Source of the DNA: a phage
Reading direction: 5' to 3' (one strand)
Sequence record: PZ583741.1
Length of the DNA stretch: 64,000 nt
The notes beneath the pieces were generated by a model. The model did not search any database, was not told where the DNA came from, and saw nothing but the letters and a program-made list of their open reading frames with translations. The position numbers and the translations under genes are program-made. Shown piece by piece: positions 17,951-63,680 of the stretch; position 1 is the stretch's first letter; the number at the start of each line of letters is the position of its first letter.

Positions 17951-17968
17951 ATAGCACGAATTGCTAAA
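17951..17968 (+). promoter_or_regulatory. B cassette motif ATAGCACGAATTGCTAAA
   Basis: Overlaps upstream stop; TATAGT-like box about 22 nt downstream. Confidence 0.55.
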
Positions 17969-18214
17969 CCTTCCGCAAGGCCGTTTGATATAGTGGTCTT
18001 GTTGAAGCAAAACAATCAATCATGGGGTTACACAAATGCAAGTTTATAAATCACCTGGCGGCGCTCGTTACGTTGTTGTTGATGGCATGGTGTACTGCAA
18101 GCCGCTAACCGGATTCACATTTCGCTCGTCAATGACGGTGGATCGATACCTTTAGTTGATAGGTTGGGGATTTCTTAGGTTTGAAAAGGTAATCAAGCCT
18201 ATAATGACCGTCAA

Positions 18215-18232
18215 ATAGCACGAATTGTTAAA
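18215..18232 (+). promoter_or_regulatory. B cassette motif, variant (atagcacgaattgttaaa)
   Basis: Read directly. Confidence 0.4.
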
Positions 18233-18410
18233 ATGGGATTCATCCTGAATGGTATGATCCACACATCAACCACAAGAATGGAAGTTAAGTGACGATATAC
18301 GAACATAAATTCAGCAGTATGGGTATTGATATGCTCCTGCACTATGTAGACGAAAAATACGCAAATCTCATGCTTAATACGCATGGCGGCACAATAACGA
18401 GGATTGAGAT

Positions 18411-18674
18411 ATGAGTAAGTACAACCGTGAGATTATCGGCCTGGATGGGGAAGTAACCACAGTGGATGTATATCGAGTCCTGGATGCATTCCAGGTAACA
18501 GACCAAGCTATACAGCACGCAATCAAGAAGATGCTGTGCACTGGACTTAGAGGGCATAAGGACTATCTTACTGACATTGAAGACTCCATTGAATCACTGC
18601 AAAAAGCCAAGGAACTTTACGATCAGCGCAAGAGTTACGAGCGGCGATACAATTTATCTTTTACAGATAAATAG
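18411..18674 (+). CDS. hypothetical small protein
   Basis: 87 aa ORF. Confidence 0.4.
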   Translation: MSKYNREIIGLDGEVTTVDVYRVLDAFQVTDQAIQHAIKKMLCTGLRGHKDYLTDIEDSIESLQKAKELYDQRKSYERRYNLSFTDK

Positions 18675-18688
18675 CACGAATTGCTAAA
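18671..18688 (+). promoter_or_regulatory. B cassette motif ATAGCACGAATTGCTAAA
   Basis: Followed by gttatagtta and leader cacaccaaacgagagg. Confidence 0.55.
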
Positions 18689-18743
18689 CCCGCTCAGAAG
18701 GGTTTTGTTATAGTTAGTTCACACCAAACGAGAGGAAATAAAG

Positions 18744-18962
18744 ATGATTACTATTAACCTGTCAGATAAACAAGCAGCAGAACTCAAGTCCATGCTTTCA
18801 ATCTTTGAGAAGCCAAATGACCAGGTAATTGCCAAAGAGGTAGTGGCTCAGATTAACAACCAGCAATTCGACGTAAGTGACTTCGAGTCATCGCGCCAGT
18901 ACGAGGCAATGAGTGTTAATGCTGCATACCTGACTAACTGGGATAATGCGACTAAGAAATGA
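18744..18962 (+). CDS. hypothetical small acidic protein
   Basis: 72 aa ORF. Confidence 0.4.
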   Translation: MITINLSDKQAAELKSMLSIFEKPNDQVIAKEVVAQINNQQFDVSDFESSRQYEAMSVNAAYLTNWDNATKK

Positions 18963-19108
18963 TTTTATACATACATGAGTACTGGACGGGGAAGTTTAAC
19001 ACAGTTCGACATGTCCGTGTTTACGAAGATTATGTAAATGCATTCAATCAGCAGAAGGTTCTTGGTGGCACCATCAAGGTTTGCGATGTTGTGGATGAGA
19101 TTTACTAA

Positions 19109-19126
19109 ATAGCACGAATTGCTAAA
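19109..19126 (+). promoter_or_regulatory. B cassette motif ATAGCACGAATTGCTAAA
   Basis: Followed by gttatagttacc and catcaaaactaacgagg. Confidence 0.55.
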
Positions 19127-19182
19127 GCAGTCTTGGGGTAATTTGTTATAGTTACCACATCAAAACTAACGAGGTTATAAGA

Positions 19183-19287
19183 ATGAGTGAATTAATTAAA
19201 ACTATCGCGGACTATCCATTTGCTTCGCTTTTTCTTGCTATTGCAATATATGAAATTGTAAAGATTATTGTCAAATGTATTAAATAG
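19183..19287 (+). CDS. hypothetical small hydrophobic peptide (34 aa)
   Basis: MSELIKTIADYPFASLFLAIAIYEIVKIIVKCIK; cassette upstream. Confidence 0.3.
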   Translation: MSELIKTIADYPFASLFLAIAIYEIVKIIVKCIK

Positions 19288-19301
19288 CACGAATTTCTAA
19301 A
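19284..19301 (+). promoter_or_regulatory. B cassette motif, variant (atagcacgaatttctaaa)
   Basis: Followed by ctatagttacccc and catcaaaacgaaac. Confidence 0.5.
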
Positions 19302-19357
19302 ACATTATCGGGGTATCTTACTATAGTTACCCCATCAAAACGAAACAGGAAGCAGAA

Positions 19358-19537
19358 ATGAAATTTCAACAAGGCGAGCCAAAGCTACAAGTCAACCACT
19401 TCGATGGTTACGCAACATTCATCATAGCCCAGGCTTGCGGGATGCGAGATGAACCTCACGTTCACACCATTCACTTAACAGAAGAACAGGCACGAGAACT
19501 GGCTTACGAAATTCTTGAGCAATTGAACCGAATTTAA
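19358..19537 (+). CDS. hypothetical small protein
   Basis: 59 aa ORF after cassette. Confidence 0.35.
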   Translation: MKFQQGEPKLQVNHFDGYATFIIAQACGMRDEPHVHTIHLTEEQARELAYEILEQLNRI

Positions 19538-19586
19538 CGCGCATAAAACGCATTCTAACGAACGATAATTTAAGTAAGGCGATTCT

Positions 19587-19903: not shown

Positions 19904-20028
19904 TGGATAACTACGAATCACCAGTAGAGTGGTGTAAGCGAATGCAGGACGAAGCTAAAACTGGTGAAGAGGCGATGGCTTACTACGAACTGGCGCAAAT
20001 TTGGATGGAACGTGAGAAGAAAGAATGA
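19903..20028 (+). CDS. hypothetical small protein (41 aa)
   Basis: TAATG overlap; short. Confidence 0.25.
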   Translation: MDNYESPVEWCKRMQDEAKTGEEAMAYYELAQIWMEREKKE

Positions 20029-20168
20029 GCTTCACTGAATACGTTATCGCATGCGAGAGACTGGTCTTTGACATGAAGACTTTTCACTGGTTCATCATCA
20101 AGGATTTAATTAAGCCTTACAAGCAAGGCGTTACGCCAGAGGCTTTTGTTAAGTCATTCTACAAATAG
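20025..20168 (+). CDS. hypothetical small protein (47 aa)
   Basis: ATGA overlap; ends in cassette motif. Confidence 0.25.
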   Translation: MSFTEYVIACERLVFDMKTFHWFIIKDLIKPYKQGVTPEAFVKSFYK

Positions 20169-20182
20169 CACGAATTGCTAAA
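20165..20182 (+). promoter_or_regulatory. B cassette motif ATAGCACGAATTGCTAAA
   Basis: 22 nt then TATAAT, then catcaacacaacgaag. Confidence 0.55.
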
Positions 20183-20241
20183 CGCAGTCGCCATGGATGG
20201 CATATAATTACCACATCAACACAACGAAGAGAGATATAATA

Positions 20242-21164: not shown

Positions 21165-21179
21165 ATAAAGGAGTTCATT

Positions 21180-21473: not shown

Positions 21474-21980
21474 ATGAGCAAAGCAGCATTAAAGATGGGT
21501 GAGGGAAATTTCAAGGCGCTCTACAACAAGAAGTATGGCGACATTGCTATGGTGGCAATCAACCGCAAGTACACGCCTGAGGAAGTTTTCGATTTCGCCG
21601 TTAGATACTTCTCCTGGGCTGAGAGCGAGGCAATTAAGGCTATTGAGACGGCTGCTTTCCAGGGTGTGGTTAGCGAGAGCCTCGTACACAAGCCTAGAGT
21701 ATTCACCTTAACTGGGCTGGCGCTCTTTATGGGTGTCAATATCAATAGATTCGCTCGCTGGCGTACTGAGGCTGGATACTCTGATGTGATGGAATTCATT
21801 GATAACGTTATTTACGAGCAGAAGTACCAGCTTGGTGTCGCAGGCATCATCAACTCTACCATCGTTGGTAAAGAGCTAGGAATTGATAAGCCGCAGGAGA
21901 TTAAGATTAGCAACAACTCCACAGCTAACGATGTTGACAGTATGAAGGAAGCACTTGAGTCCGTGATCAGTAAGCTATAG
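21474..21980 (+). CDS. putative terminase small subunit
   Basis: 168 aa; first gene of packaging operon; positional inference. Confidence 0.4.
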   Translation: MSKAALKMGEGNFKALYNKKYGDIAMVAINRKYTPEEVFDFAVRYFSWAESEAIKAIETAAFQGVVSESLVHKPRVFTLTGLALFMGVNINRFARWRTEAGYSDVMEFIDNVIYEQKYQLGVAGIINSTIVGKELGIDKPQEIKISNNSTANDVDSMKEALESVISKL

Positions 21981-22048
21981 CACTTATTGTTAAAAGAATG
22001 GGCCCAATCAATGAGATAATTGGGTCACTAACTTAACGAGGTGATGAT

Positions 22049-22561: not shown

Positions 22562-24125
22562 TTTGATAGTTTGGGATGAGTTAAATCATGCGCAGAAGAT
22601 GGCTATCAAGGCCATCTCTGAGCATAGTTTCGAGGGGTTCTTGCGGTGTTTCTTCCAGATAACTCAGGGCGAGAGATTCAAAATGAATTGGCATGCGAAG
22701 TACCTTTGCCGCGTCATTGATGAGATTCTTGAGGGTAAGAGAAAGGATACCATCATAAACGTATCTCCGGGATCTGCCAAAACCGAACTGTTTAGCATCC
22801 ACTTCCCTGTATATAGCATGATTAAGATTAAGAAGGTTAGGAATCTTAGTTTGTCGTTCTCTGACTCATTGGTTAAGCGCAACTCCAAGCGCGTAAGGGA
22901 TTTGATAAAATCAAAGGAGTTCCAGGAGCTTTGGCCCTGCACCTTTGGAACGTGCAGGGATGACGAGATTCAGGTTCTTGATGAGAATGGCAAAGTTAGG
23001 TTTGAGTCTATATCTAAGGCGATGGCTGGTCAGGTGACAGGAAGCAGGGGCGGCTACATGACTGACGATTATAGTGGTTGCATAATGCTGGATGACCCAC
23101 TAAAGCCTGATGACGCGTTAAGTAATGTAAGAAGAGAGGCTGTCAATATGCTTCTCAAGAACACAATCCGTTCACGTCGAGCTAGCTCAGTAAAGGGAAA
23201 AGAAACGCCAATACTTTCCGTGCAGCAAAGACTTCATGTTCTGGACACTAGCCACTTCATGGAGTCAGGGCAAATGGGCATAAAGTTCGACGTAGTGAAA
23301 GTTCCAGCCATAGTCACAGAGGATTACGCCGACACGCTTCCTGATTGGATCAAACAACAATTTATTGATGATGTTCTTTCATCACCATTTGTAGAGCGGG
23401 ATGGAGTTAAGTATTACAGCTACTTTCCGGCAAAGGAGTCAATAGAAGACCTGATGGCTATGTGGGATGCTGACCCGTACACGTTCCTTAGTCAGTACCA
23501 GCAGGAACCTGTAGCTCTGGGCGGCAATCTTATTAATGTGGATTGGTTCCAGCGCCTTAGTGATACATTCATACCTCCAGCCAAGTATGATTATCGATTC
23601 ATCACATGCGATACCGCGATGACCACTAAAAGTTACAGCGACTTCTCTGTTCTTCAGTTGTGGGGCTATAAAGATGCTAAGATTTACCTTATTGATCAGC
23701 GCAGGGGTAAATGGGAGGCCCCAGAGTTGGAGGCTGAACTTCTGGACTTTGAGAAGAAATCAAGGGCAACCAGTCAGTCAGATGGTATCCTCAGAAAGAT
23801 TATTATCGAGAAGAAAGCGTCTGGTATCGGCCTGATTCAATCAGCTGGCAGGGTTATGCGAACACCGATAGAGCCATACGTACCGGATAATGACAAGCTA
23901 ACCAGGGTGATGAGTGCACTACCACAGATTAAGGCTGGTAACGTAGTTCTTCCAGAGTCATCGCCGTGGCTAAACGGATTGCTCACTGAGGTTGCGGCTT
24001 TTACGGCAGATGACTCGCATAAGCACGACGACCAAATTGACTGTCTAACAATGGCGGTAAACCTTGTACTTAACATCGCTGATGATCCTAAGGCGAGACT
24101 GATGCGCATAGCGGGAATGAAATAG
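22554..24125 (+). CDS. terminase large subunit (family different from genome A)
   Basis: Walker A-like VSPGSAKT, ...IMLDDPLKPDD, nuclease-domain-like TCDTAMTT...SDFSVLQLWG; start at M37 of track ORF 22446. Confidence 0.75.
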   Translation: MSDLIVWDELNHAQKMAIKAISEHSFEGFLRCFFQITQGERFKMNWHAKYLCRVIDEILEGKRKDTIINVSPGSAKTELFSIHFPVYSMIKIKKVRNLSLSFSDSLVKRNSKRVRDLIKSKEFQELWPCTFGTCRDDEIQVLDENGKVRFESISKAMAGQVTGSRGGYMTDDYSGCIMLDDPLKPDDALSNVRREAVNMLLKNTIRSRRASSVKGKETPILSVQQRLHVLDTSHFMESGQMGIKFDVVKVPAIVTEDYADTLPDWIKQQFIDDVLSSPFVERDGVKYYSYFPAKESIEDLMAMWDADPYTFLSQYQQEPVALGGNLINVDWFQRLSDTFIPPAKYDYRFITCDTAMTTKSYSDFSVLQLWGYKDAKIYLIDQRRGKWEAPELEAELLDFEKKSRATSQSDGILRKIIIEKKASGIGLIQSAGRVMRTPIEPYVPDNDKLTRVMSALPQIKAGNVVLPESSPWLNGLLTEVAAFTADDSHKHDDQIDCLTMAVNLVLNIADDPKARLMRIAGMK

Positions 24126-24139
24126 CACAAATTGCTAAA
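24122..24139 (+). promoter_or_regulatory. B cassette motif (atagcacaaattgctaaa)
   Basis: 22 nt then TATAGT, then cacacaaaagagaggag. Confidence 0.55.
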
Positions 24140-24194
24140 CACTAAAGCCACGGATGGCGTATAGTTACTTCACACAAAAGAGAGGAGAAGAAAG

Positions 24195-27527: not shown

Positions 27528-27610
27528 TGCCTATCATCTCATCATTGCGTGGTCTAAAAACTCGTGTATAATGAACACGTAGACACCTAACTGAAAAGGA
27601 ACAATAAAGA

Positions 27611-35342: not shown

Positions 35343-36098
35343 ATGTTAAGTCCAAAGTTTGAAAATCAGTTGCAAAGCCTTTTCCCGGGTGAGATTGTTA
35401 CTCTAATCCAGGTTGACGGAACCTCATTTGGAAGTCTCGTTTATTCGTTCCATAATGAGAACATTTCATACACACCAGAAGAGATTATGCTAGCCCAAAT
35501 GAATGGCGAGCCACTGCCAGAGAAGACAATTACATTCCGCGGCGAAGAGTATGGCCCAAGACCATTTGGTATCTCTGGTATCAATATGACTTCTGACGGC
35601 AAGGCTAACAAGGTTACGTTAACGGTATCAAACGTGGACCAGCGCATTAGCGCATTGATTCGCACATATAACGGACTTGTTAAGGCAAAGGTTACTATCT
35701 GGATCACCACGCGCGACAATATCAATGAAGACGGAAGTATTGCTGATGGGGACTATCGCAGATTTGTTTACTTCATTGAGAGGCCAAAGCAGGTTGATTA
35801 CAAAACGGCATCATTTGAGCTAAGTAGCCCGATGGATATGGATGGCATTTACATCCCAGCGAGACTTGTTCAGTCAGTTTGCTATTGGGCCTCTAGGGGT
35901 TGGTATCGTAGCGGTAATGGTTGCGACTATGCTGGCAATAGATACTTCAATAAGGATGATGAGCCAGTGGCAGACCCTTCATTAGACTTCTGTGCAGGAA
36001 CAGTTAACAGTTGCAAGCTTAGATTTGGTGAGAATAACCAACTTTCATTTGGTGGCTGCGCGGCGGCAAGCCTTCAGGCAAAGGCGAATCAGAGTTAA
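35343..36098 (+). CDS. minor tail protein (lambda L-like position)
   Basis: ATG 35343 (track 35331 is a TTG); C-terminal Cys cluster. Confidence 0.45.
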   Translation: MLSPKFENQLQSLFPGEIVTLIQVDGTSFGSLVYSFHNENISYTPEEIMLAQMNGEPLPEKTITFRGEEYGPRPFGISGINMTSDGKANKVTLTVSNVDQRISALIRTYNGLVKAKVTIWITTRDNINEDGSIADGDYRRFVYFIERPKQVDYKTASFELSSPMDMDGIYIPARLVQSVCYWASRGWYRSGNGCDYAGNRYFNKDDEPVADPSLDFCAGTVNSCKLRFGENNQLSFGGCAAASLQAKANQS

Positions 36099-36116
36099 AT
36101 AGCACTTTTTGCTAAA
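36099..36116 (+). promoter_or_regulatory. B cassette motif, variant (atagcactttttgctaaa)
   Basis: Then ggatggcgTATAGTtacc and cacacaaacgagagg. Confidence 0.5.
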
Positions 36117-36171
36117 GACGAACAGCAAAGGATGGCGTATAGTTACCTCACACAAACGAGAGGATATAAAA

Positions 36172-42606: not shown

Positions 42607-42672
42607 TTCTAATTCCTTAGTAAGTTGTTTCGTTTCGATGTGGTAATAGTATCGCATCCATGAGATCAGTAT

Positions 42673-42690
42673 TTAGCAATTAGTGCTATT
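42673..42690 (-). promoter_or_regulatory. B cassette motif on minus strand (aatagcactaattgctaa)
   Basis: Reverse complement read directly; TACTAT box and catcgaaacgaaac leader follow. Confidence 0.5.
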
Positions 42691-43339
42691 TCTTTTCGAG
42701 TAACATCTTGATGTCAATGCCGAGATTATTTTCAATCAATCCAGTCAGTGCATCCGTCTTTTCTTTAAGGGCAAAACACTGAGCTTCATACTTAAATCTT
42801 TCCTCCATCTCGTCAGAGCGACTAACCCAGCACTGGCGAGCCTCGCAAGCCAGCATGTCGAGTTTTTCATCGGTATTCTTATCCATGAGTAAGATCTCAT
42901 TTATTCTTTGCTCTGCAACAATGCGCTGACTAAGGTGTGCATTTTGCGCATTAGCCACACCAAGCATCATGCGCGCTTCTTTTAACTCATCAATGCTTAC
43001 CATCTGACTGATTACTTCTGCTTGTTTTTTAACTAACGACTCAAGCTCATGAAGTCTTTTAACTACCGCGTATCGAAGTGCGGGGCTGTAACCCATAACC
43101 AATGTTTCAGTTAAATCGCGGTTAAGAAGAACTTCAGAAACAAAGCCGCGATAGTCTATAAGTGCTTGATAATCCTCATGACCCAAATTTGGGTTATGCC
43201 CCGACGCTAGGATGTCGATTATCATATCCTCACAGTCACGAATAACGTGACCATGTCTTTTCCCAGTTAATTCCGCAATTTCTTTCGTGCTCATCATGGT
43301 TTTCGGCTGTTCTTTGTACAATTTAATCTTCATTTTCAT
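42686..43339 (-). CDS. Rha-family-like phage regulatory protein (putative)
   Basis: N-terminal MSTKEIAELTGKRHGHVIRDCE resembles Rha regulators; start at M34 of track ORF. Confidence 0.45.
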   Translation of the reverse strand: MKMKIKLYKEQPKTMMSTKEIAELTGKRHGHVIRDCEDMIIDILASGHNPNLGHEDYQALIDYRGFVSEVLLNRDLTETLVMGYSPALRYAVVKRLHELESLVKKQAEVISQMVSIDELKEARMMLGVANAQNAHLSQRIVAEQRINEILLMDKNTDEKLDMLACEARQCWVSRSDEMEERFKYEAQCFALKEKTDALTGLIENNLGIDIKMLLEKK

Positions 43340-43431
43340 CTCTCTTTGGTTTTGTGATACGAAATTTTCGTAGCGCAAGCGGCACCATTTCCGCCATGCG
43401 CACAAATATACCCAAATATTGCGTCTTGTCT

Positions 43432-43449
43432 TTAGCAAGACGTGCTATT
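43432..43449 (-). promoter_or_regulatory. B cassette motif on minus strand (aatagcacgtcttgctaa)
   Basis: TATATT box downstream on minus strand. Confidence 0.45.
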
Positions 43450-43938
43450 TATCGCAAATTTACCCATAAATCATGGTTACGCGTAACCGATGTAACTCGA
43501 TGTATACCATAGCCACCCGCGAGAAATGATATACGCACTGTTACGCCAATTTACGCAATGGTTACATTAAAATATCTATATATATCAACCTTTTACTCTT
43601 ATTATTATTATTATATATATTACCGTGTATATCATGTAACTACTGTTCTGGAGTGTTCCGGTTATAATTTTTATATTATGTGGATTTATACAGTATTGCG
43701 CGGCACCTATACATATGCACCATCCGTTAAAATAGGTATACACGATATACGCACCATTTACATTGAGCTATAGCTGGGCTTAAGTGGTGAAAAACGTAAC
43801 AAATGGCGATGTCTACACGTAGTTACAAAATTATACGCGTAAACTTGAATCAACGATTGGCAAAACCAATTGGACTACGCGTCGTGCGTAAGGCATCATT
43901 AACTCATCGAAAGCAAACAACAATAGAGAGATAAAGAA
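43440..43938. promoter_or_regulatory. AT-rich divergent control region (copy 1) with (TA)n, (ATT)n and 20-bp element cattgagctatagctgggct
   Basis: About 500 bp without ORFs; element at 43761..43780 contains perfect palindrome agctatagct; paralogous to 61940..62662. Confidence 0.5.
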
Positions 43939-44136: not shown

Positions 44137-45108
44137 ATGACATTTACCGTATACACAAATGATGAGCTAACCAATGAAGCCTATCACGAAGAGCAAGACC
44201 ATATCTCTGGCTCTTCACTTGCTGAGATTCTTGCCACCTCTCCAGCTAAATGGAAGTTTAAGCAGCGCAATAACTCTAGCGCAGCACTTAAGTTTGGCAC
44301 ACTCAGTCACTGCATGATGCTCGAGCGTGAAGTGTTCGATTCAACCTACATGCGAGCAACTGACTTTGACGAAGTGGAAGGATTGATTACAAGCCAAACA
44401 GCCTTATCAGCAGCGCTTAAGAAAGTTGGAGTTTCTGGCACGTCAGGAAAGGGCTATAGCGAGCTCTTAGAGATGATGTACAAGTCTGGTGAGGATTGGC
44501 CTGTTAAATGGTTAATTGATCAGCAGGAGAGCGCTGAGGCGTTAATTAGTGGCAAGGAGCTAGTTACTGCTAAAGATTACGATAAGGTAATCTCAATGCG
44601 TGAGGTTCTGACTAATGTACCGGCATATGATGCGGTGATTAATTCACCTACAGCGCAGAAAGAGCTATCAATCTTTGGTGATATTCTTGGGTGTGGTGTT
44701 AAGGTTCGGCTTGATCACGTGGATGTTGTTGATGGCGTTGTCTATATCCATGACTATAAGACGACCGCAGACGCAAGCCCTCGAGGATTTGGTAAGTCGG
44801 CTTATGACCATGGTTACCTGTGCAAGATGAGCCTTCAGCGTGATTTGTTTGTGAAGGCATTTAGCGAGAAGCGCAAGGTTGTGGTTCGACTCCTGGCGCA
44901 GGAGAAAACTGAACCATACTTACCTATGTGCTACACGCTTACAGATGAGCAACTTCGCATTGGGCGCATTCAGTATCTTGAAGCACTGGCTACATACAAA
45001 CAGTGCAAGGAACTTGATGTGTGGCCTGGTTACAGTAATGGGATTACAGAGCAAGAACTGATGATCCCTGAGTGGGTAAGTAAGCAGTATCAGGAGCTGC
45101 TAAAATAG
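44137..45108 (+). CDS. PD-(D/E)XK family exonuclease
   Basis: 323 aa; N-terminal block matches A ORF 1799..2749; IHDYKT motif. Confidence 0.55.
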   Translation: MTFTVYTNDELTNEAYHEEQDHISGSSLAEILATSPAKWKFKQRNNSSAALKFGTLSHCMMLEREVFDSTYMRATDFDEVEGLITSQTALSAALKKVGVSGTSGKGYSELLEMMYKSGEDWPVKWLIDQQESAEALISGKELVTAKDYDKVISMREVLTNVPAYDAVINSPTAQKELSIFGDILGCGVKVRLDHVDVVDGVVYIHDYKTTADASPRGFGKSAYDHGYLCKMSLQRDLFVKAFSEKRKVVVRLLAQEKTEPYLPMCYTLTDEQLRIGRIQYLEALATYKQCKELDVWPGYSNGITEQELMIPEWVSKQYQELLK

Positions 45109-45122
45109 CACGAATTGCTAAA
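45105..45122 (+). promoter_or_regulatory. B cassette motif ATAGCACGAATTGCTAAA
   Basis: Then ggggtattatcacccc and catcgaaactaaaaac. Confidence 0.5.
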
Positions 45123-45185
45123 GACAAAATTAACTGGTGGGGTATTATCACCCCATCGAAACTAAAAACAGAAGTGAGAGATTAA

Positions 45186-49057: not shown

Positions 49058-49075
49058 GTAGCACTAATTGCTAAG
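49058..49075. promoter_or_regulatory. cassette-like palindrome gtagcactaattgctaag upstream of tailspike
   Basis: Matches consensus on the plus strand but lies 5' of a minus-strand gene; orientation ambiguous. Confidence 0.35.
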
Positions 49076-49106
49076 TTGGATTGTATCATCTTTCAGGCAT
49101 AAAAAA

Positions 49107-50104: not shown

Positions 50105-50578
50105 TTACTCTTTAGCTTTTCGTGCTGCTTCGTTGGCTGCCTTAATTTTGCGCCATGAGCGACACTCTGGTTTAGTTGCTAGCTCAGCCTCAGTAACAAC
50201 ACGCAGCATATGACGCTTCTTGCAACGTAGAGTTAGCGGTTTCCCGTTACCGTCGAATTGCAGATCTGGTCGGCAGAATGTAGCGCGAAAACCTTCTCCA
50301 TTTCGCTTATAGTAGTTGTGCGACAACTGAGCGCCGCGCGCAGAAATCATCCCACGCTTAAACCATTCTTCTACAGCCTGAGGTGTCACCTTTAACTGCT
50401 TTGCGATATTTGCCTTTGTGCCGAAGAAATCAAGAACAATCTCCAGTCGCGCACGTAAACCCGCCCTTACCTCATCTTTCAAAACGTAGTAACCTGAAGG
50501 TCGTTTACGTTGCTTCTTATCTTGTGTGCGGACGGTCCCGTTATTGCCGTTAATTGTTCGCTTGTCAACTGCATTCAT
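50105..50578 (-). CDS. putative HTH DNA-binding protein
   Basis: Basic protein with HTH-like segment NIAKQLKVTPQAVEEWFKRG; start at M13 (gagg RBS). Confidence 0.3.
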   Translation of the reverse strand: MNAVDKRTINGNNGTVRTQDKKQRKRPSGYYVLKDEVRAGLRARLEIVLDFFGTKANIAKQLKVTPQAVEEWFKRGMISARGAQLSHNYYKRNGEGFRATFCRPDLQFDGNGKPLTLRCKKRHMLRVVTEAELATKPECRSWRKIKAANEAARKAKE

Positions 50579-50679
50579 TTCATTACCTCGATAGCATTTT
50601 TTGTTAAAAGTCATTCTGATTTGATGGTATTATTGTACTCAATTAAACGCTACAAGACAATTTTTATAGGAATTTAGAT

Positions 50680-52675: not shown

Positions 52676-53095
52676 ATGCAAATTACAGACAAAGAAGATT
52701 ACATTGAGTTTTACCCAGGCCCGGTTAAGTCATGCCCGAAAGAGGATGACGAACAAATCTTTTGCTCTGATTGGGTTAAGTATAACTACCAGGAGATGGT
52801 ATTTTTCCACTGCGTAAATGAGGGGAAGAAAACCATTGGACAGGCAAGAAAGGACCAGGCTAAAGGGCTCCTTAAAGGCGTGTCAGACTGCATGTTTCTT
52901 ATTCCAGAGTCTCTGCGAGGCAAATACCCTTTCGGAGCTATAGAGCTGAAGAGGGCTGGCAAAACTCAGGCTAGCCCAGTCAGTGACGAGCAGAAGTCTT
53001 TCCTTAAAAGCGTGAGAGAATCAGGGGGTTTCGCTGGGGTTGCCTACGGTAGAGATGGTTTTCTGGCAGCGTTTAGAGAAATGATTTCAAAATAG
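52676..53095 (+). CDS. VRR-NUC domain nuclease
   Basis: 139 aa; D...IELKR core; homolog of A 2775..3215. Confidence 0.55.
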   Translation: MQITDKEDYIEFYPGPVKSCPKEDDEQIFCSDWVKYNYQEMVFFHCVNEGKKTIGQARKDQAKGLLKGVSDCMFLIPESLRGKYPFGAIELKRAGKTQASPVSDEQKSFLKSVRESGGFAGVAYGRDGFLAAFREMISK

Positions 53096-53109
53096 CACTA
53101 ATTGCTAAA
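53092..53109 (+). promoter_or_regulatory. B cassette motif (atagcactaattgctaaa)
   Basis: 22 nt then TATAGT, then catcgaaacgaaacgc. Confidence 0.55.
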
Positions 53110-53173
53110 CACTTATCGCATGGATGCGATATAGTTACTCCATCGAAACGAAACGCACGAAGAGAGAAAGAAA

Positions 53174-54651: not shown

Positions 54652-55782
54652 ATGGCAACTGCAAAAATCACCAACGAGCAACTGCGCGAAGAGCTGGAAA
54701 ATGGCATGACCAACAAGGCAATCGCAGAGAAGTATGGAATGAACATTCGCAACGTTGAATTGCGTCGCAGTAAGCTGGCAAAATCAGGCGAGCTTCATGG
54801 AAACCCTGGTATCAAGAAGTTAGTCCCTGACGGTTATATGGTCAAAGGAACCTCAACAATGATTGACGCGGCGGGTAATGAAAAGCTTCGCTGGGTTAAA
54901 ACCTCTGTAGATAATGAGCGCCTTGAGGTTTTAATGGAGCAAGCTAGAGAGGCATTTTGTTCTGAGTTGCCAAAAGCAGATGCGGTCAGCCACTCAGGCA
55001 ACGAAGTTAACTCTGAATTAATGACTCTTTACCCTATTTTCGATATCCATATCGGCATGATGGCGCATCGCCATGAATCTGGTGAGAATTATGACACTAA
55101 CACGGCAGAGAAATTAATGGAATCATATTTCGACCATGCAATTTCTGTATCACCTGCGTCAGAGAAAGCCGTTGTTTTAGTTGGCGGCGACTTCCTTCAC
55201 TCTGACGGACTGGAGGCAGTAACTCCAGCAAGTGGTCACTGCCTTGATCAAGATAGTCGATATGCTAAGTTAGTTTATGTTGCAATTCGCTCAATTCGTG
55301 GTGCCATAGAGAAGATGCTTAAGAAGCATAAGAATGTCGAGATTCAGATTATAGAGGGAAATCATGACCAAAGCGGCATGATCTGGCTTCGCGCTGCAAT
55401 GGCTGCATTTTATGAAAACGAGAATCGCGTGTTTGTTGATACCAGTCCAGCAATCATGCACAAGACGCGATTTGGCTCAACGTTACTTGGTTACACACAC
55501 GGTCACACGATGAAGAAAGCCGAGGGTCGACTTGCGGCAATGGCGACTGACTACCGTAAAGACTTTGGTGAATGTGAATTTGTTTACTGCCACTCAGGAC
55601 ATTTCCATCATGCAACTGTTACAGAGTGCACACTTGGTATTGACGAGGTTCACCCAGCACTGGCCAGTAAGGACGCATATGCCGCACGTGGAGGTTGGCG
55701 CTCATACCGTCAAGCGGCTGCGATAGTTTACCACAAGAATTTTGGCGAGGTTGGTCGCCATATTTACCGCCCAGGCATGTAA
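54652..55782 (+). CDS. calcineurin-like metallophosphoesterase with N-terminal HTH-like domain
   Basis: 376 aa; DIHIG, GGDFLHSD, EGNHD motifs; N-terminal MTNKAIAEKYGMNIRNV. Confidence 0.5.
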   Translation: MATAKITNEQLREELENGMTNKAIAEKYGMNIRNVELRRSKLAKSGELHGNPGIKKLVPDGYMVKGTSTMIDAAGNEKLRWVKTSVDNERLEVLMEQAREAFCSELPKADAVSHSGNEVNSELMTLYPIFDIHIGMMAHRHESGENYDTNTAEKLMESYFDHAISVSPASEKAVVLVGGDFLHSDGLEAVTPASGHCLDQDSRYAKLVYVAIRSIRGAIEKMLKKHKNVEIQIIEGNHDQSGMIWLRAAMAAFYENENRVFVDTSPAIMHKTRFGSTLLGYTHGHTMKKAEGRLAAMATDYRKDFGECEFVYCHSGHFHHATVTECTLGIDEVHPALASKDAYAARGGWRSYRQAAAIVYHKNFGEVGRHIYRPGM

Positions 55783-55800
55783 ATAGCACATTTTGTTAAT
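55783..55800 (+). promoter_or_regulatory. degenerate B cassette motif (atagcacattttgttaat)
   Basis: Read directly; weaker match. Confidence 0.3.
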
Positions 55801-55856
55801 AAAGCCTCAAAGGATTGAGGCAAAATGAATAAACGATAACGAGATTAGGAGTTATA

Positions 55857-56330: not shown

Positions 56331-56887
56331 AAATGACTAAATTATTTATCCTTAATGGCCCAGCTGGAGTAGGCAAGGACACTATAGCGGATATCATGGT
56401 TGAGACTGGTGTCGCCAAAGAAAAGGTATCATTCAAGTCACCAATGTTTAACGTTGCAAAAGGAATGCTATCAAGCGATGAATTTGATGGATTCATCAAG
56501 AATTACGACAATAGAGGCTATAAGGAATCACCTCATGGATTTATTGGCGGTATGACAGTTCGTGAATTTATGATTTGGATTAGCGAGTCTGTAATGAAGC
56601 CAGTCTTTGGTGATGATGTTTTCGGTAAAAGGCTAGCCCAGTCACTTGGTGATGGTTGCTACATTTGCGCTGACGGTGGATTTGCTAGCGAGATTGAGCC
56701 ACTGATCGACGCTGGTGTTAATGTAACGTTAATCAGATTGCATAGGGCAGGGTACACATTTGATGGCGATAGTCGCTCATACATTCACGGGGTGTGCGCA
56801 AGAGAAATTGATGTTCGTGTTGTTGATTGTGATATTGATGGAACATCAGCATTGGTAAGGCACGTAATAAATAGCACGAATTGCTAA
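56327..56887 (+). CDS. P-loop kinase (dNMP kinase-like)
   Basis: 186 aa; LFILNGPAGVGKDTIAD P-loop near N-terminus. Confidence 0.45.
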   Translation: MKMTKLFILNGPAGVGKDTIADIMVETGVAKEKVSFKSPMFNVAKGMLSSDEFDGFIKNYDNRGYKESPHGFIGGMTVREFMIWISESVMKPVFGDDVFGKRLAQSLGDGCYICADGGFASEIEPLIDAGVNVTLIRLHRAGYTFDGDSRSYIHGVCAREIDVRVVDCDIDGTSALVRHVINSTNC

Positions 56888-56889
56888 AG
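56872..56889 (+). promoter_or_regulatory. B cassette motif ATAGCACGAATTGCTAAA
   Basis: Then catcgaaacgagatg leader. Confidence 0.5.
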
Positions 56890-56955
56890 ATAATAATAAA
56901 AACTTAGTTATCATTAACACATCGAAACGAGATGAAACAAAAGAGGAAGAACAAA

Positions 56956-60356: not shown

Positions 60357-60413
60357 TACTTCTCTCCGTGTTGTTTCTGAGCGGCCATTATATCAACGAC
60401 CGCTTATAATTCA

Positions 60414-60431
60414 TTATCAATTTGTGCTATT
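60414..60431 (-). promoter_or_regulatory. B cassette motif on minus strand, variant (aatagcacaaattgataa)
   Basis: TATAAT box, ggagag RBS and P-loop gene ATG follow on minus strand. Confidence 0.45.
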
Positions 60432-60781
60432 TACAGGTACTGGGCCTCAAAATGGTACGTCTGGCAAAGAGTGTAAAATCCAACATCCTCGCTACGGTAG
60501 AGCTGCCAGGCATTACCATCCTCATCGTAAATGTAACCAGCCGATTGACCTAGTCCAGCGTGAAGGTTCACCTGGTAACGTTTCTCTTCTTTAAAGTCTT
60601 TTTTAACTCCTGATTTATGGTTAACCTTCGTGCAGTAAATAGTTTTGGTCTTAATGTATTTGCCGCGCTCTTCCAGGTTAATCCATTTGCCATCTTTCTT
60701 GATTTGTTCTACACCATCTTTAACTCGAGCTTTGTATAATACGTTATCGTTGCTAATGAAGTTTTTAGTAATCGTTGTCAT
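60431..60781 (-). CDS. hypothetical protein
   Basis: 116 aa after minus-strand cassette. Confidence 0.4.
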   Translation of the reverse strand: MTTITKNFISNDNVLYKARVKDGVEQIKKDGKWINLEERGKYIKTKTIYCTKVNHKSGVKKDFKEEKRYQVNLHAGLGQSAGYIYDEDGNAWQLYRSEDVGFYTLCQTYHFEAQYL

Positions 60782-60844
60782 TTTGTTTGCCTTTTTGTGT
60801 TTCGTTTCGATGAGATGAATATACAGGAAAAGCCCCGAAGGGCT

Positions 60845-60862
60845 TTAGCAATTCGTGCTATT
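60845..60862 (-). promoter_or_regulatory. B cassette motif on minus strand (aatagcacgaattgctaa) followed by hairpin
   Basis: Downstream on minus: gcccttcggggctttt hairpin, then catcgaaacgaaac. Confidence 0.5.
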
Positions 60863-61005
60863 TCGTGCTTTTTCTATCGCCTTGAGCATAATTTCATGAC
60901 TCTCTAGCAAGTCCTCGCGAAACCAGTCTCCGCAGGGCCAGCCCTTTCCGCTGTAAGCACTTATGACCTCAAGGTCGAAATAATTTATCTCAGATGGTAA
61001 TAGCA

Positions 61006-61266
61006 TCACTTCACCTCATCAAAAGTTGCAATTCCAGGGATTACTAGCTTTCGCACCCAGCCATTAATGTCAATACAGCTATTAATTGCAATCCATCCAG
61101 AATCGTGCTTGTGCGGTCGCTCAGCGCCATTAATAACCCATTCGTTCGGGATTGTCTTGCCGTTAATTATTAGCGGCTCTGCGTCGTATACAGAGCCTTT
61201 AACGAAAGGCGTTAAGACTTTCTTGTCGGTACTATTGATAACGTTAGTGCAGATTATTTTAGTCAT
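61006..61266 (-). CDS. hypothetical protein
   Basis: 86 aa ORF. Confidence 0.35.
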   Translation of the reverse strand: MTKIICTNVINSTDKKVLTPFVKGSVYDAEPLIINGKTIPNEWVINGAERPHKHDSGWIAINSCIDINGWVRKLVIPGIATFDEVK

Positions 61267-61450
61267 TTACAACCTCGTACTCACCTTTATAAACAGCGAC
61301 CTCTTCATTCACATTGTTGACAATCACTGCTAAACAAAGAGCACCCAAATACTTTACCACTTCGTACTCGCAGCCCAACGTCAGACAATAGTCCTCACAT
61401 GAACGTCCACTGCAATCTAAATCTTCGAATTTAACTAACTTAATTTTCAT
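61259..61450 (-). CDS. hypothetical protein
   Basis: 63 aa ORF. Confidence 0.3.
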   Translation of the reverse strand: MKIKLVKFEDLDCSGRSCEDYCLTLGCEYEVVKYLGALCLAVIVNNVNEEVAVYKGEYEVVND

Positions 61451-61460
61451 ATCTCAATCC

Positions 61461-61640
61461 TCAAATAAATGGTAAGCATTCAGTGCAGCCGAGGCCGTCA
61501 CAACAGAAAAATTCATCCTCTGACTGGAACTGCTTTGCCAGATCAATATCCAACTTTCCGCGCAACACAAGGTCGGTGTAATCCTCGTTAAGCCCAATCA
61601 GTGCGCATTCGTGACGTAACTCATCTTTATTCTTTTTCAT
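61461..61640 (-). CDS. hypothetical small Cys-containing protein (59 aa)
   Basis: ORF read on minus strand, ends FFCCDGLGCTECLPFI; not in track. Confidence 0.25.
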   Translation of the reverse strand: MKKNKDELRHECALIGLNEDYTDLVLRGKLDIDLAKQFQSEDEFFCCDGLGCTECLPFI

Positions 61641-61939
61641 TTCTCATGGCCCTTTAAATTATGGCGCTTATTCAGAACTTCAACCCATTCTTGCGCGTCT
61701 TTCTCTCTCATGAAGAAGCTTAACTTTGGGTGCTTGTGAAAACCTTTAAGTTCAACAATCCAATGACCACCTTCGTAACTATAACTAACTTTCTTCTCTG
61801 TCATTTCGTTACCTTTTGAGTTTTTTATTATCGACATCTCTTCAACGTACTCGCTACAACTCGGGATTTTACTCCCGGCCCGGCATTCTAACAAAAGGAC
61901 CCGCTCGGCGCTTTGGTGGGTGAGGTAACGCTTCCTCAC
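61637..61939 (-). CDS. hypothetical protein (start uncertain)
   Basis: 100 aa track ORF; 5' part overlaps a GC-rich structured stretch, so an internal Met may be the real start. Confidence 0.3.
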   Translation of the reverse strand: MRKRYLTHQSAERVLLLECRAGSKIPSCSEYVEEMSIIKNSKGNEMTEKKVSYSYEGGHWIVELKGFHKHPKLSFFMREKDAQEWVEVLNKRHNLKGHEK

Positions 61940-62662
61940 ATTGCGCGGTAGTATTTACCCTTTTTAGTCTCTTTCGAGAGTGACTCAGAGTCTGCTACCG
62001 TGTCGATGAGATTAAGTATACGCATAGTTAGCCACACTGTCTTTAGCAAAAAGTGCTATTCGTTAGATTTATGGATTGTTGCAGATATTGCAATGATTCA
62101 CATGACTATTGCACATACAGCAATATTGCTTCAGATGCAATGATGTTTTTGATTGTTGCGAAAATTGAAATGAAGTGGAGATTGAGTGAATGAAAGATGG
62201 ATGGACTACCATACAAGTTGATTTTGATCTTGACTGAGCCATTTTCACGCTTACACGTAACCGCTGTAGCGCGATGTAAGCCAACGCCTATCGTTACGCG
62301 AGTTACGCGAAGCTACGCCATGACTTACACTATAAGTGCTTAATATATATATATATCTTCTTTCTATTATTATTATTATTATTAATATTATTGTATGTAA
62401 GTCATGTAACCGGGTGTTCGGCGGTATCTATATGTTTTTTCCTATCAGAATACATTATTTCCATTTTATGCGAGATTTAGCCATTATGGGGCCACCTAGC
62501 TAATTTACCTCGTTACACGCACGACACGAAACTACATTGAGCTATAGCTGGGCTGGTGTGCCATTTCGCGTAACGACCCCCAAAAGTTACCAAAAATTAC
62601 ACTTGACTACATGTGTAAGTCGGGATATGATGGATTCAACTTAAACGAGAGGAGTAATAGAA
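61940..62662. promoter_or_regulatory. AT-rich divergent control region (copy 2) with (TA)n, (ATT)n and 20-bp element cattgagctatagctgggct
   Basis: Element at 62535..62554; (tatt)/(att) run 62361..62390; paralogous to 43440..43938. Confidence 0.5.
62043..62060 (-). promoter_or_regulatory. B cassette motif on minus strand, variant (aatagcactttttgctaa)
   Basis: Reverse complement read directly. Confidence 0.45.
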
Positions 62663-63142
62663 ATGAACGAGAAAGTAACATTGGGACAAGTGATTCGTGA
62701 GATGGTAAAGGCAGCGCTTAAGTCTGAGGACAAGCAGATCAGCGTGACACTTAACAAGATTGAGAGCCTTATTGGTGCTGAGGAGGGTGGCCTACACAAG
62801 CTTAAGAGCTCATATATCTACAATACAACGGCTCGCATGCCAGAGTTGAGGGATGCAGGACTGAAGGCAACTCACCACTATGATGACGATGAGGGTGGCA
62901 GTGAATTTGGAGAAACAACTTTAGCGGGAGAAAGGAAGTTAGTTATCAAGCTAATACCAGGCACGGCAAACATTGGAATCAGGAAAAAGACCAACGACGC
63001 GGTCAAGGATGAGGCAATCACTGAGTTCAAGGCGAAGATTTCTAAGGTGATGCCAGATCTCTCTGAGTATGAGGGTGAAGCGCTTGCAGCCGCCATGAAG
63101 GCCATTAAGGATTACCGTTTAATTATTGAGGAGATTAAGTAA
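62663..63142 (+). CDS. hypothetical protein
   Basis: 159 aa, RBS gagaggag upstream. Confidence 0.4.
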   Translation: MNEKVTLGQVIREMVKAALKSEDKQISVTLNKIESLIGAEEGGLHKLKSSYIYNTTARMPELRDAGLKATHHYDDDEGGSEFGETTLAGERKLVIKLIPGTANIGIRKKTNDAVKDEAITEFKAKISKVMPDLSEYEGEALAAAMKAIKDYRLIIEEIK

Positions 63143-63666
63143 TGTTTGACTTTAACGATGATAAACTGACAGAAGAGCAGGTAATTGAGATATCCAAGCA
63201 AGATGGACTGCCTCCGCTGCGAATTGCAATCAATGCTAACGGTTATCGACAGTCAACTGCGTTTTGGGGCTCGATTGATACATCAGAGGTGTATAGTGGT
63301 GATGAGCTTGGTGTACTGATTAAAATCATCAGGAAAATGGGAGTCAACGGCAAAGGAGTTGTCGGCATCAGGTCTCTATATGAAGGTGCTCGCAAGCTGA
63401 AACCATTTACGGGTCGCGATGGAATGATGCTACTGATTAAGGATAAGCTAATTCCAGAACTCGACAAGATGAATGTTACCTGTCTAATTGGAGATAAGGT
63501 TTACGTCAACCCTTCCTTGACGGATTTAAGCTGGCAGCCTAACTTCAAAACTTACGAAGGTGAGCACCATAGCAGACTACCATACCACTTGCGGTACAGT
63601 GAGGAGGAGGTTGAGAAGGCGATTGAGTTCTACCGGAAAGCTAAATCACTCCTGAATGGTAAATAG
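63142..63666 (+). CDS. truncated paralog of P-loop protein 58773..60356 (lacks the NTPase core)
   Basis: 174 aa; MFDFNDDKLTEEQV...LPPLRIAINANGYRQS and GKGVVGIRSLYE...CLIGDKVYVNP match the N- and C-termini of the 527-aa protein. Confidence 0.45.
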   Translation: MFDFNDDKLTEEQVIEISKQDGLPPLRIAINANGYRQSTAFWGSIDTSEVYSGDELGVLIKIIRKMGVNGKGVVGIRSLYEGARKLKPFTGRDGMMLLIKDKLIPELDKMNVTCLIGDKVYVNPSLTDLSWQPNFKTYEGEHHSRLPYHLRYSEEEVEKAIEFYRKAKSLLNGK

Positions 63667-63680
63667 CACTTTTTGCCTAA
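63663..63680 (+). promoter_or_regulatory. B cassette motif, variant (atagcactttttgcctaa)
   Basis: Then ggatggcataatagcc and catcgaaacgagag. Confidence 0.45.

Follow-up and report, generated by a model that had tools for sequence, protein, structure and literature searches.

We analysed a 64,000-nucleotide stretch of phage DNA (record PZ583741.1, hereafter the window) for a conserved repeat that stands in front of some twenty of its genes. BLAST against phage records reveals that two unrelated phage genomes are joined end to end in the window. Positions 1 to ~17650 (genome A) resemble Salmonella phage Segz_1 and its relatives, while positions ~17652-64000 (genome B) form a complete Rtp-like genome of the T1-type Drexlerviridae, with vB_Ec-G8, Rtp, SU57, DTL and EC3a as best matches. 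The join at 17640-17660 is artificial or comes from assembly: homology to vB_Ec-G8 begins at 17652, and an open reading frame (ORF) at 16480-17709 spans the join, so that its last codons are chimeric.

The repeat is confined to genome B, which holds 21 oriented copies of ATAGCACnnnTTGnTAAA; genome A holds none. Searching the window with the oriented pattern ATAGCACNNNTTGNTAAA and up to two mismatches gives 21 sites, every one at or beyond 17951, against 0.81 expected. The palindromic pattern ATAGCAnnnnnTGCTA with at most one mismatch gives 36 matches, each site being counted on both strands, against 1.76 expected, and none of 100 shuffled sequences reaches 36. A first-pass annotation of this DNA had listed about 19 sites, with none in 1..17651. 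All 19 were recovered, the one placed at 56872 starting at 56871, and the minus-strand copies were rightly placed (oriented boxes 42672-42689, 43431-43448, 60413-60430, 60844-60861 and 62042-62059). Two further copies lie on the plus strand, at 21977 and 50591, and the part free of copies belongs to the different, Segz_1-like phage.

The 21 copies align without gaps over ~65 nt, and this alignment bears out the unit as first described, with a 22-nt spacer, a TATAGT/TATAAT hexamer, a leader, a Shine-Dalgarno sequence and a start codon. Taking the A of ATAGCAC as position 1, the box reads AA, ATAGCAC, three variable bases and TTG(C/T)TAAA, ending at position 18, and falls into few subtypes (GAA, TTT and TAA/AAA). 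From TTGCTA to TATAGT/TATAAT the distance is 22 nt. Positions 34-37 are rich in T and G, with G37 (corresponding to -14) in 16 of the 21 copies, and TATAaT occupies positions 39-44, with A40 in 17 and T44 in 18 copies. C48, C50 and A51 follow, then the leader tCgAAACgA, and a Shine-Dalgarno sequence precedes a start codon located 73-90 nt from the first box base. The overlap of the box with the upstream stop codon is also confirmed, since the stop lies within or beside the box, as TAG at positions 2-4 or as TAA at -2 or 15-17. The copies occur throughout the phage genome on both strands, and 20 of 21 run in the same direction as the downstream gene. We are highly confident that the unit is a promoter cassette, as the first-pass annotation proposed.

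At the left end of genome B, the plus-strand cassette at 17949..18011 has its box at 17951-17970 (ATAGCACGAATTGCTAAACC, without a mismatch to the consensus AYnGCACnnWnnRYYAAAYn discussed below), a -10 hexamer TATAGT at 17989-17994 bracketed by a 9-bp stem, and a predicted start at ~18001. It is followed on the same strand by cassettes at 18213..18275 (box 18215-18234, -10 TATGAT 18253-18258) and 18669..18731 (box 18671-18690), the latter with a terminator-like spacer hairpin AAACCCGCTCAGAAGGGTTT followed by TGTTATAGTT, a terminator scan match at 18686-18705 and TATAGT at 18709-18714. The cassette at 19107..19169 (box 19109-19128) has an extended -10, TGT-TATAGT, at 19147-19152. That at 19282..19344 carries the TTTCTA variant of the box (19284-19303) and a TATAGT bracketed by the stem GGGGTA/TACCCC, and at 20163..20225 a box at 20165-20184 precedes TATAAT at 20203-20208. 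The plus-strand cassette at 21975..22037 (box 21977-21996, ATAGCACTTATTGTTAAAAG; -10 GATAAT), absent from the earlier list, stands upstream of an HNH endonuclease ORF at 22049-22561. This ORF (Pfam HNH_3; 21977-22561 together with its own cassette) sits between the small and large terminase genes, and since the large gene directly follows the small one in vB_Ec-G8, it looks like a mobile insertion that brought or used the cassette. At 24120..24182 (+) the box (24122-24141) overlaps the stop codon of the terminase large subunit gene, with TATAGT at 24160-24165, and the cassette at 36097..36159 (+; box 36099-36118, TATAGT 36138-36143, 19-bp gap) lies upstream of a virion protein ORF.

Further along, two minus-strand cassettes are found at 42629..42691 (box 42670-42689, -10 TACTAT 42646-42651) and 43388..43450 (box 43429-43448, -10 TATATT), the second with a long leader before a Rha-like gene. 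On the plus strand, the cassette at 45103..45165 (box 45105-45124) has TATTAT at 45143-45148 bracketed by the stem TGGTGGGG/CCCCATCG. The one at 50589..50651, also missing from the earlier list, combines a variant box (50591-50610, ATAGCATTTTTTGTTAAAAG) with TATTAT near 50628-50633; it lies upstream of a helicase gene (50680) and adjoins a divergent helix-turn-helix (HTH) gene. Three more plus-strand units follow: 53090..53152, with box 53092-53111, spacer hairpin CGCATGGATGCG, TATAGT at 53130-53135 and leader CCATCGAAACGAAACG; 55781..55843, with a variant box at 55783-55802, spacer hairpin GCCTCAAAGGATTGAGGC and a weak -10 CAAAAT, upstream of a PNK-phosphatase ORF; and 56869..56931, with box 56871-56890 and TATCAT at 56909-56914, upstream of the lysis region. 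The minus-strand cassette at 60370..60432 precedes the gene of a 527-aa DNA helicase and has a variant box (60411-60430, TTGATAAT) and an extended -10, TGA-TATAAT, bracketed by the stem AGCGGTCG/TGGCCGCT. On the same strand, the unit at 60801..60863 (box 60842-60861, -10 TATATT) carries a spacer hairpin GCCCTTCGGGGC followed by TTTTCC, which is terminator-like, and that at 61999..62061 (box 62040-62059, -10 TATACT, 19-bp gap) has a predicted start at ~62009 and a leader of ~70 nt before an ORF starting at 61939. The last cassette, at 63661..63723 (+), shows a variant box (63663-63682, TTGCCTAA), an extended -10 TGG-CATAAT and the leader CTCATCGAAACGAGAG.

Judged by its sequence, the repeat box reads as a 20-bp marbox, the type of site recognised by MarA, SoxS and Rob, pointing at the downstream gene. 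The marbox is defined as 5'-GCAHWWWWTGYYAAA-3' and bound by a MarA monomer, class II sites being those in forward orientation that overlap the -35 region (PMC6900184). The phage variants GCACTTTTTGCTAAA and GCACTTTTTGTTAAA fit this 15-mer at 15 of 15 positions, and GCACGAATTGCTAAA at 14. Genome B contains 7 exact matches to GCAHWWWWTGYYAAA, which is the published marbox and thus independent of the phage boxes; EC3a and Rtp have 9 each, T1 has 11 and TLS 12. Simulated sequence gives 0.1-0.25 and genome A none, so that the marbox-type element is 50-100-fold enriched in phage over chance. The longer 20-mer consensus, AYnGCACnnWnnRYYAAAYn, is said to go back to Martin et al. in 1999; six window copies match it without a mismatch and nine with a single one (15 of 21 with at most one).

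The same agreement is seen over 123 boxes from eight phage genomes. The variable positions are 7 (C/T), 8-10 ((G/T)(A/T)(A/T)) and 14 (C/T), which are the degenerate positions of the marbox, while G4 is present in all 123 boxes, C7 in 114, and C5 and G13 are invariant or nearly so. A matrix built from these boxes scores the E. coli micF and mar marboxes, taken directly from the K-12 genome, at 13.5 and 15.2; the highest of 500,000 random 20-mers reaches 10.2.

The first-pass annotation suggested that a factor binds the palindrome, but a functional role of this symmetry is not supported. Conservation is asymmetric: the left part, ATAGCAC, is essentially invariant, while position 14 in the right arm is C in 81, T in 36, A in 5 and G in 1 of the 123 boxes, with a constant G4 in the left arm. 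In the window, C14 is replaced by T in four copies and by A in one, with no compensating change in the invariant left arm. The palindrome is therefore incidental; TAGCA/TGCTA as a hairpin or symmetric operator was rejected on the lack of compensatory change between the arms, in the 21 copies as in the 123 boxes.

Several other identities of the box were tried and rejected. A sigma-54 promoter has the consensus TGGCAC-N5-TTGC, with a GG...GC pair at a fixed 10-bp spacing; the box has AGCAC instead of GGCAC, and a CAC-TTGC gap of 3 nt instead of 5. UP elements are A/T-rich stretches between -40 and -60 that lack an invariant G/C core, which does not fit the invariant or near-invariant G4, C5 and G13 and the frequent C7. 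The familiar sigma-32, -28, -24 and -38 consensus sequences, used as yardsticks, gave no fit. If TTGCTA were a -35 element, its spacer to TATAGT would measure 22 bp, and no -10-like hexamer lies 17 bp downstream. Reading the box itself as an extended -10, with TG at positions 12-13, TAAAnn as its hexamer (15-20) and a start at ~27, where the hairpin has its foot, was appealing since the hairpin often begins at 27. It was rejected as the main promoter: the final T of this hexamer is not conserved and positions 19-20 are variable, the canonical TAtaaT profile being found at 39-44 instead.

The position of the box relative to the -10 element points in the same direction as its sequence and is the strongest argument for the marbox reading. 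Measured to the best -10-like hexamer, the gap downstream of the box is 18 bp for 110 of the 138 boxes in the eight genomes, and for 127 it is 17-19 bp. In the micF promoter of E. coli K-12, the marbox ACAGCACTGAATGTCAAAAC ends 18 bp before the -10 TAGAAT, with its centre at -41.5 from the annotated RNA 5' end. micF is the class II paradigm, with the soxbox centred at -41.5 (Shi et al. 2022, PMC9638938), and in Salmonella, chromatin immunoprecipitation sequencing (ChIP-seq) and cappable-seq show forward sites clustering at -41, with class II promoters that have no recognisable -35 (PMC10268841). In the phages, a start predicted at Y50-A51 (Y50 in 111 and A51 in 99 of 123 cassettes) would put the box centre at -40.5, or at -41.5 with the -10-to-start distance of micF, which is one base longer. 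The polarity is also that of micF: in 20 of the 21 window copies YAAA is the element nearer the gene and GCAC the one farther away, the copy at 49058 being reversed.

The -10 element is of the sigma-70 type (T93 A108 T96 A76 A63 T114 in 123 cassettes) and lies within an extended motif TGnTATAaT at positions 36-44; the G at -14 is shared by 99 of the 123 cassettes, and 48 (39%) have the complete TG. No -35 element is present: positions 16-21 read AAAnnn, and the best match to TTGACA is 2.8 of 6 against 2.4 in random sequence. Generic -35/-10 matches are not enriched over shuffles (34 against 34.3 and 36 against 39.7, for window positions 17651-37650 and 44001-64000), and this lack of excess explains why earlier annotators found few promoters.

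Based on these observations, we propose that each unit is a compact transcription-unit boundary, namely a class II marbox promoter read by the host sigma-70 RNA polymerase, and we consider this reading, host activator included, probable as a whole. Positions 1-20 would form the marbox, with GCAC at 4-7 and YYAAA at 14-18, directed at the gene. Positions 21-38 would serve as an 18-bp spacer of free sequence, which usually can form a hairpin, alone or with positions 44-58. Transcription is predicted to start at A51 (Y50-R51), placing the box centre at about -40.5 to -41.5, and would proceed through the leader ATCGAAACGA and the Shine-Dalgarno sequence to the ATG. A monomer of a host MarA-family protein (Rob, MarA or SoxS in E. 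coli, with RamA in addition in Klebsiella, Enterobacter and Salmonella) would bind the box and, as shown for micF, touch sigma region 4 and the alpha C-terminal domain, contacts that stand in for the missing -35. Some basal activity independent of the activator would probably come from the extended -10. Finally, the hairpin would stop or insulate transcripts arriving from the upstream gene, in part of the copies as an intrinsic terminator whose U-tract is the T-rich -10.

The hairpin component was assessed by folding. Positions 19-60 fold better than their shuffles, with a mean z of -2.5 over the 123 cassettes (60% below -2; window mean -1.7). Between the spacer and the sequence after the -10, 35 stems of 7 bp or more are found, against ~10 expected when arms are paired between different copies. 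The commonest register, positions 27-33 with 50-44, brackets the -10, and since the stem sequence differs between copies, this pairing represents covariation. Copy-specific inverted repeats with the -10 in a loop of ~10 nt are found at 19310-19333, 17975-18002 and 60380-60404 in the window and at 3561-3584 in T1. In T1 and TLS the bracketing stems reach 13-15 bp, extending from just after the box to position 58, and no T-run follows. Such stems might protect the 3' end of the upstream mRNA or present the -10 in a cruciform.

A different arrangement occurs in 40 of the 123 cassettes, where a GC hairpin lies wholly within the 18-bp spacer and ends at the T-rich -10, most clearly in Klebsiella and Erwinia phages (for example CCCGGCgaaaGCCGGG-TATTATT in a Klebsiella phage). 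In this part of the copies, the spacer hairpin and the T-rich -10 have the makings of an intrinsic terminator, the -10 being the putative U-tract. The annotated T1 terminators at 38973-39001, 39998-40024 and 41980-42007 fall exactly at spacer hairpins, and terminator-like hairpins are two-fold enriched in the structural region of the window's genome B (32 against 16.1 in shuffled sequence). In the window, the terminator-like copies are 18671, by folding and by terminator scan, and 60861, by eye and by folding, which the scan did not flag; 13 further cassettes have the -10 in the hairpin loop and no T-run. The suggestion that the element acts as terminator and promoter in one would thus hold for part of the copies, in the window most clearly for 18671. 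In E. coli K-12, the marbox of the fumC promoter (ATGGCACGAAAGACCAAACA) adjoins the fumA terminator (1686560-1686800, minus strand), a packing as tight as in the phages and in the opposite order.

The leader reads C-A(+1)TCGAAACGA at positions 50-60 (for example 53141-53151 and 42629-42640 in the window), and C-A-T-C-G-A-A-A-C-G-A is kept across Drexlerviridae genera, including the Klebsiella and Erwinia phages; no Rfam family corresponds to it. The cassettes at 62059 and 43448 have untranslated leaders of ~60-70 nt, about twice the usual length (61940-62009 and 43340-43398, both on the minus strand), and may accommodate small RNAs or a regulatory structure.

Every member of the Drexlerviridae that was examined has the cassette, namely Tunavirus T1, Tlsvirus, Rtpvirus, Guelphvirus, Webervirus, Hicfunavirus and Erwinia phage Snitter, so that it occurs in Klebsiella (Webervirus), Erwinia and Citrobacter phages of the family. 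T1 has 23 copies and TLS 20, both with the same fixed downstream -10, and multi-copy matches in IMG/VR are contigs of ~45-53 kb. One Yersinia myovirus with a distantly related capsid lacks the cassette. Scanning 185,579 species genomes gave, among the matches listed, single copies only and no clustered repeat. Among the same listed matches, most enterobacterial ones represent a single orthologous site, with GC-rich flanks that resemble coding sequence in their conservation. An exact phage-type box, ATAGCACTATTTGCTAAAAT, is kept at one orthologous site in many Enterobacteriaceae (among them Enterobacter, Citrobacter and Leclercia), which is probably unrelated to regulation. Two inspected enterobacterial loci with an exact phage-type box, an AlpA-type island gene and a pao-like operon, are uninformative on known regulon promoters. 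A host repeat of the repetitive extragenic palindromic (REP) kind was rejected, as bacterial genomes give isolated single copies among the matches listed. The first-pass annotation had allowed for a common host promoter or a REP-like element unrelated to the phage. Half of this holds, in that the box is of a host activator type; the other half does not, the element being 50-100-fold enriched in phage and no bacterial repeat.

The repeat itself has been described before. In TLS, 18 intergenic copies of a 21-nt repeat, aaATAGCACnnnTTGnTAAAA, run co-directionally ~76 nt before start codons (German, DeGiulio, Ramsey, Kropinski, Misra 2024, PMC11447400), and the authors mention similar repeats in T1, Rtp and Rogue1 (PMC11447400). 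They found only three sigma-70-like promoters, proposed a stoperator, an enhancer-binding site or an UP element, and listed the function of the repeat as an unanswered question (PMC11447400). The repeat of genome B fits their definition, with the consensus aaATAGCACnnnTTGnTAAAA at 73-90 nt before start codons. The repeat is thus already published for TLS, and its likely identity as a consensus marbox in class II position is, as far as the searched literature shows, the new point. In that literature, whose coverage is incomplete, we found no paper linking the marbox to T1-like phages, nor published start-site or transcriptome data for them.

We next consider which protein could read the box. 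The first-pass annotation suggested a dedicated phage regulator or sigma-like factor, which is not needed to explain a box that fits the marbox consensus of the host and is placed as in the class II promoter micF. No MarA or SoxS homologue was found by tblastn against the window, T1, TLS, Rtp, EC3a and G8 (best E ~0.9), Pfam shows no AraC-type domain in the 20 ORFs tested, and MarA tblastn against 50,697 phage records gave no evident Drexlerviridae match among the matches listed; a MarA-like protein encoded by the phage was rejected on these tblastn and Pfam searches. The hosts of the Klebsiella, Erwinia and Citrobacter phages are all enterobacteria and are expected to carry MarA-family regulators (PMC12052159). 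It is from sequence that we infer binding by MarA, SoxS or Rob, the dependence of transcription on these proteins, and the start sites; that host MarA-family activators act on the cassettes seems to us a better than even prospect. Rob is considered the most likely reader in unstressed cells, being constitutive and abundant although largely sequestered.

Several points weigh against this interpretation. Without stress, a cell contains little MarA and SoxS, and most of its Rob is sequestered (PMC10268841), so that it is not obviously sensible for a virulent phage to rely on them for its immediate-early genes. The searched literature holds no binding, footprint, start-site or genetic data for T1-like phages. 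Positions 3, 11 and 12 of the phage box are invariant although they are 'n' in the 20-mer consensus, and a box more constrained than the generic marbox could mean a different or additional binder. The second class II promoter that we inspected, fumC of E. coli, has a perfect marbox but an ambiguous -10, and yields no second clean spacing value. Direct confirmation covers the 15-mer, the position at -41/-41.5 and the sequence of micF, whereas the 20-mer and part of the spacing rule for class II promoters serve as background. Finally, every Drexlerviridae genome examined keeps a conserved HTH gene, so that co-occurrence cannot exclude a phage factor.

This gene is the basis of the alternative that survives best, although we think it unlikely: a phage-encoded regulator would activate or repress all cassettes, and the likeness to the marbox would be convergence or mimicry. 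The candidate is the conserved 'transcriptional regulator' at 50105..50614 on the minus strand, a homologue of T1 gp23 and Rtp52 (phrog_2856), kept beside the primase gene in T1, TLS, Rtp, EC3a and the Klebsiella and Citrobacter phages. The variant box at 50591 abuts its start and would permit autoregulation, positions 1-3 and 11-13 vary less in the phage box than in host marboxes, and in copies with C14, TAGCA-N5-TGCTA forms a dyad with 10-bp spacing. However, the protein has no AraC-type domain and only a weak, single HTH of the P22_Cro type (E = 4.5e-6, below the Pfam cut-off; best PDB match E = 0.88). Proteins of this kind usually bind symmetric sites as dimers, whereas the dyad is broken without compensation in a third of the boxes (36 of 123 with T14), and the asymmetric conservation profile equals that of the two-HTH monomer site of MarA. 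The exact spacing and orientation of micF would also be left as an unexplained coincidence. The other HTH protein put forward in the first-pass annotation, at 42686-43438, is a Rha/anti-repressor-like accessory protein, and no Rha-like gene is annotated in the Rtp record.

It is quite unlikely, in our view, that no protein factor is involved and that the cassettes are activator-independent extended -10 promoters, the box touching RNA polymerase directly through an UP-like or otherwise unusual contact, or merely marking the end of a module. Extended -10 promoters can work without a -35, the frequency of the G at -14 (99 of 123) and of the complete TG (48 of 123) speaks for this possibility, and phage early genes must fire in unstressed cells. 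An UP-like enhancer was also proposed by the TLS authors (PMC11447400). On the other hand, the full TG is found in only 39% of cassettes, UP elements are A/T-rich whereas the phage box is centred on an invariant GCAC, and the strict 18-bp phasing together with 14-15 invariant positions implies a sequence-specific reader. A factor-free promoter would leave the point-by-point match to the marbox unexplained.

That the box is kept mainly as a recombination or module junction, shuffling small genes among T1-like phages in the manner of T4 PeSL cassettes with transcription secondary, is very unlikely. Homology breakpoints between genome B and Rtp, EC3a, G8, T1 and TLS do gather in the cassettes (27 of 146 against 6.4 expected, p = 2e-10, with a null not limited to intergenic DNA), many tiny variable ORFs are flanked by cassettes, and the boxes fall into few sequence subtypes. 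Breakpoints are nevertheless expected to gather in any intergenic DNA, recombination needs identity and not a fixed distance to a -10 or co-orientation with genes, and the box is kept across subfamilies with unrelated flanks. Moreover, a junction role is compatible with promoter function and not an alternative to it. Lastly, 'stoperator'-like sites, at which a bound protein blocks elongating polymerase as the L5 repressor does, are among the suggestions of the TLS authors and would suit asymmetric sites lying between genes and co-oriented with transcription, but are extremely improbable in virulent phages with no identified repressor, since a roadblock needs no fixed -10 distance, separate hairpins or terminators for stopping transcripts are already present, and the marbox match would again go unexplained.

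The one window copy outside a cassette is an orphan box at 49058..49077 (+), which runs against the flanking minus-strand genes for the primase and a tail fibre and has no -10 at the fixed distance. Its position is kept in T1 (34902), Rtp (33762) and EC3a (32078). Read on the minus strand, its GTGCTAC contains a TGn and runs into a hexamer, TACTTT, that may be a -10 and is closely followed by the tail-fibre ATG. This ATG (~49050, minus strand) lies 7 nt past the reversed box without a Shine-Dalgarno sequence, and the ORF list gives a GTG at 49064 (window 49040-49077). TGC-TACTTT could be an extended -10 that yields a leaderless or near-leaderless tail-fibre mRNA.

The major capsid gene, too, is preceded by a canonical sigma-70 promoter whose spacer is a reversed marbox in T1 (15067-15086), TLS (15023-15042), the Erwinia phage Snitter (33970-33989), a Klebsiella phage (~26448-26467) and Citrobacter phages. 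In the example TTGACG-CTTTAACAAAAAGTGC-TATTAT, GTGCTAT supplies the TGn and the start of the -10. Reversed boxes beside a possible -10 are likewise found ahead of the tail-fibre gene, both in T1 and in the window, and ahead of a tail gene of T1. The capsid promoter of the window (27545..27572, +) is a canonical sigma-70 promoter, TTGCGT-N16-TATAAT, upstream of the major capsid gene, with a degenerate box remnant only. Elsewhere in the window, a tRNA-Arg gene with anticodon TCT lies in the early region of genome B at 21087-21164 (+), as in other Rtp-like phages, and genome A contains an Rfam int-alpA RNA match at 12452-12515 (+; 42.6 bits, above the gathering score).

Reading the cassettes as class II marbox promoters would supply the missing promoters of T1, TLS, Rtp and their Klebsiella, Erwinia and Citrobacter relatives, and it names candidate host factors (Rob, MarA, SoxS and RamA) that make a published open question directly testable. 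If correct, it would tie the regulon governing intrinsic multidrug resistance to a large family of virulent phages, and phage growth could differ between mar/ram/sox-derepressed clinical isolates and the wild type. T1-like phages are notorious contaminants of laboratories and fermentations and also candidates for therapy, and the cassettes could provide compact, insulated and inducible promoter-terminator parts. If it is false, one would have to explain why the marbox and the geometry of micF are mimicked so exactly.

Taken further, and here we are speculating in a way that is more doubtful than probable, the whole transcription programme of the Drexlerviridae may be wired onto host MarA/SoxS/Rob/RamA. 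About 20 forward marboxes would drive insulated, terminator-bounded units and reversed marboxes would respond in the opposite way, while replicating DNA (hundreds of genomes with 20 consensus sites each) would titrate the activator, time the switch from early to late and drain the stress and efflux regulon of the host. Infection would then be tunable by salicylate, paraquat, bile salts or the mar mutations common in antibiotic-resistant clinical isolates.

Among known systems, the 21-nt repeats of TLS are the same element, described there without a link to the fixed -10, the marbox or the hairpin. With the class II mar-sox-rob promoters, represented by micF, the cassettes share an asymmetric 20-bp marbox with GCAC and YAAA in forward orientation, 18 bp to a sigma-70 -10, a centre near -41.5 and the absence of a -35 hexamer. 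Unlike that class, they lie on a virulent genome at ~20 per 46 kb, 50-100 times the chance level, with a box nearer to consensus and far less variable, a spacer hairpin or terminator and a conserved transcribed leader, and their dependence on an activator is putative.

The capsid promoters resemble a second group of mar-sox-rob targets, in which the marbox lies in the promoter spacer and represses. Schneiders and Levy reportedly described in 2006 a repressing marbox that overlaps the spacer of the rob promoter. At pbpG, repression by MarA, SoxS and Rob goes with a marbox that overlaps the spacer (PMC12052159). MarA bound beside a -10 is also capable of activation, through distorted base pairing (PMC12781870), so that the reversed boxes of the phages may act in either sense.

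Two phage systems offer further parallels. The PeSL (promoter-early stem-loop) cassettes of T4-type phages, reportedly described by Arbiol, Comeau, Krisch and co-workers in 2010, are likewise compact units of promoter and stem-loop between small novel ORFs, with breakpoints enriched at the units; they differ in having an unrelated sequence and plain early sigma-70 promoters with a -35 and no activator box. In the middle promoters of T4 (MotA box at -30, with AsiA) and the middle and late promoters of Mu (Mor, C), the box of a phage-encoded activator replaces the -35. These promoters also combine a good -10 and no -35 with an upstream box at a fixed distance, and are used genome-wide for one temporal class, whereas the box of the Drexlerviridae cassettes lies at another position and has the sequence of a host activator's site, for which no phage homologue was found.

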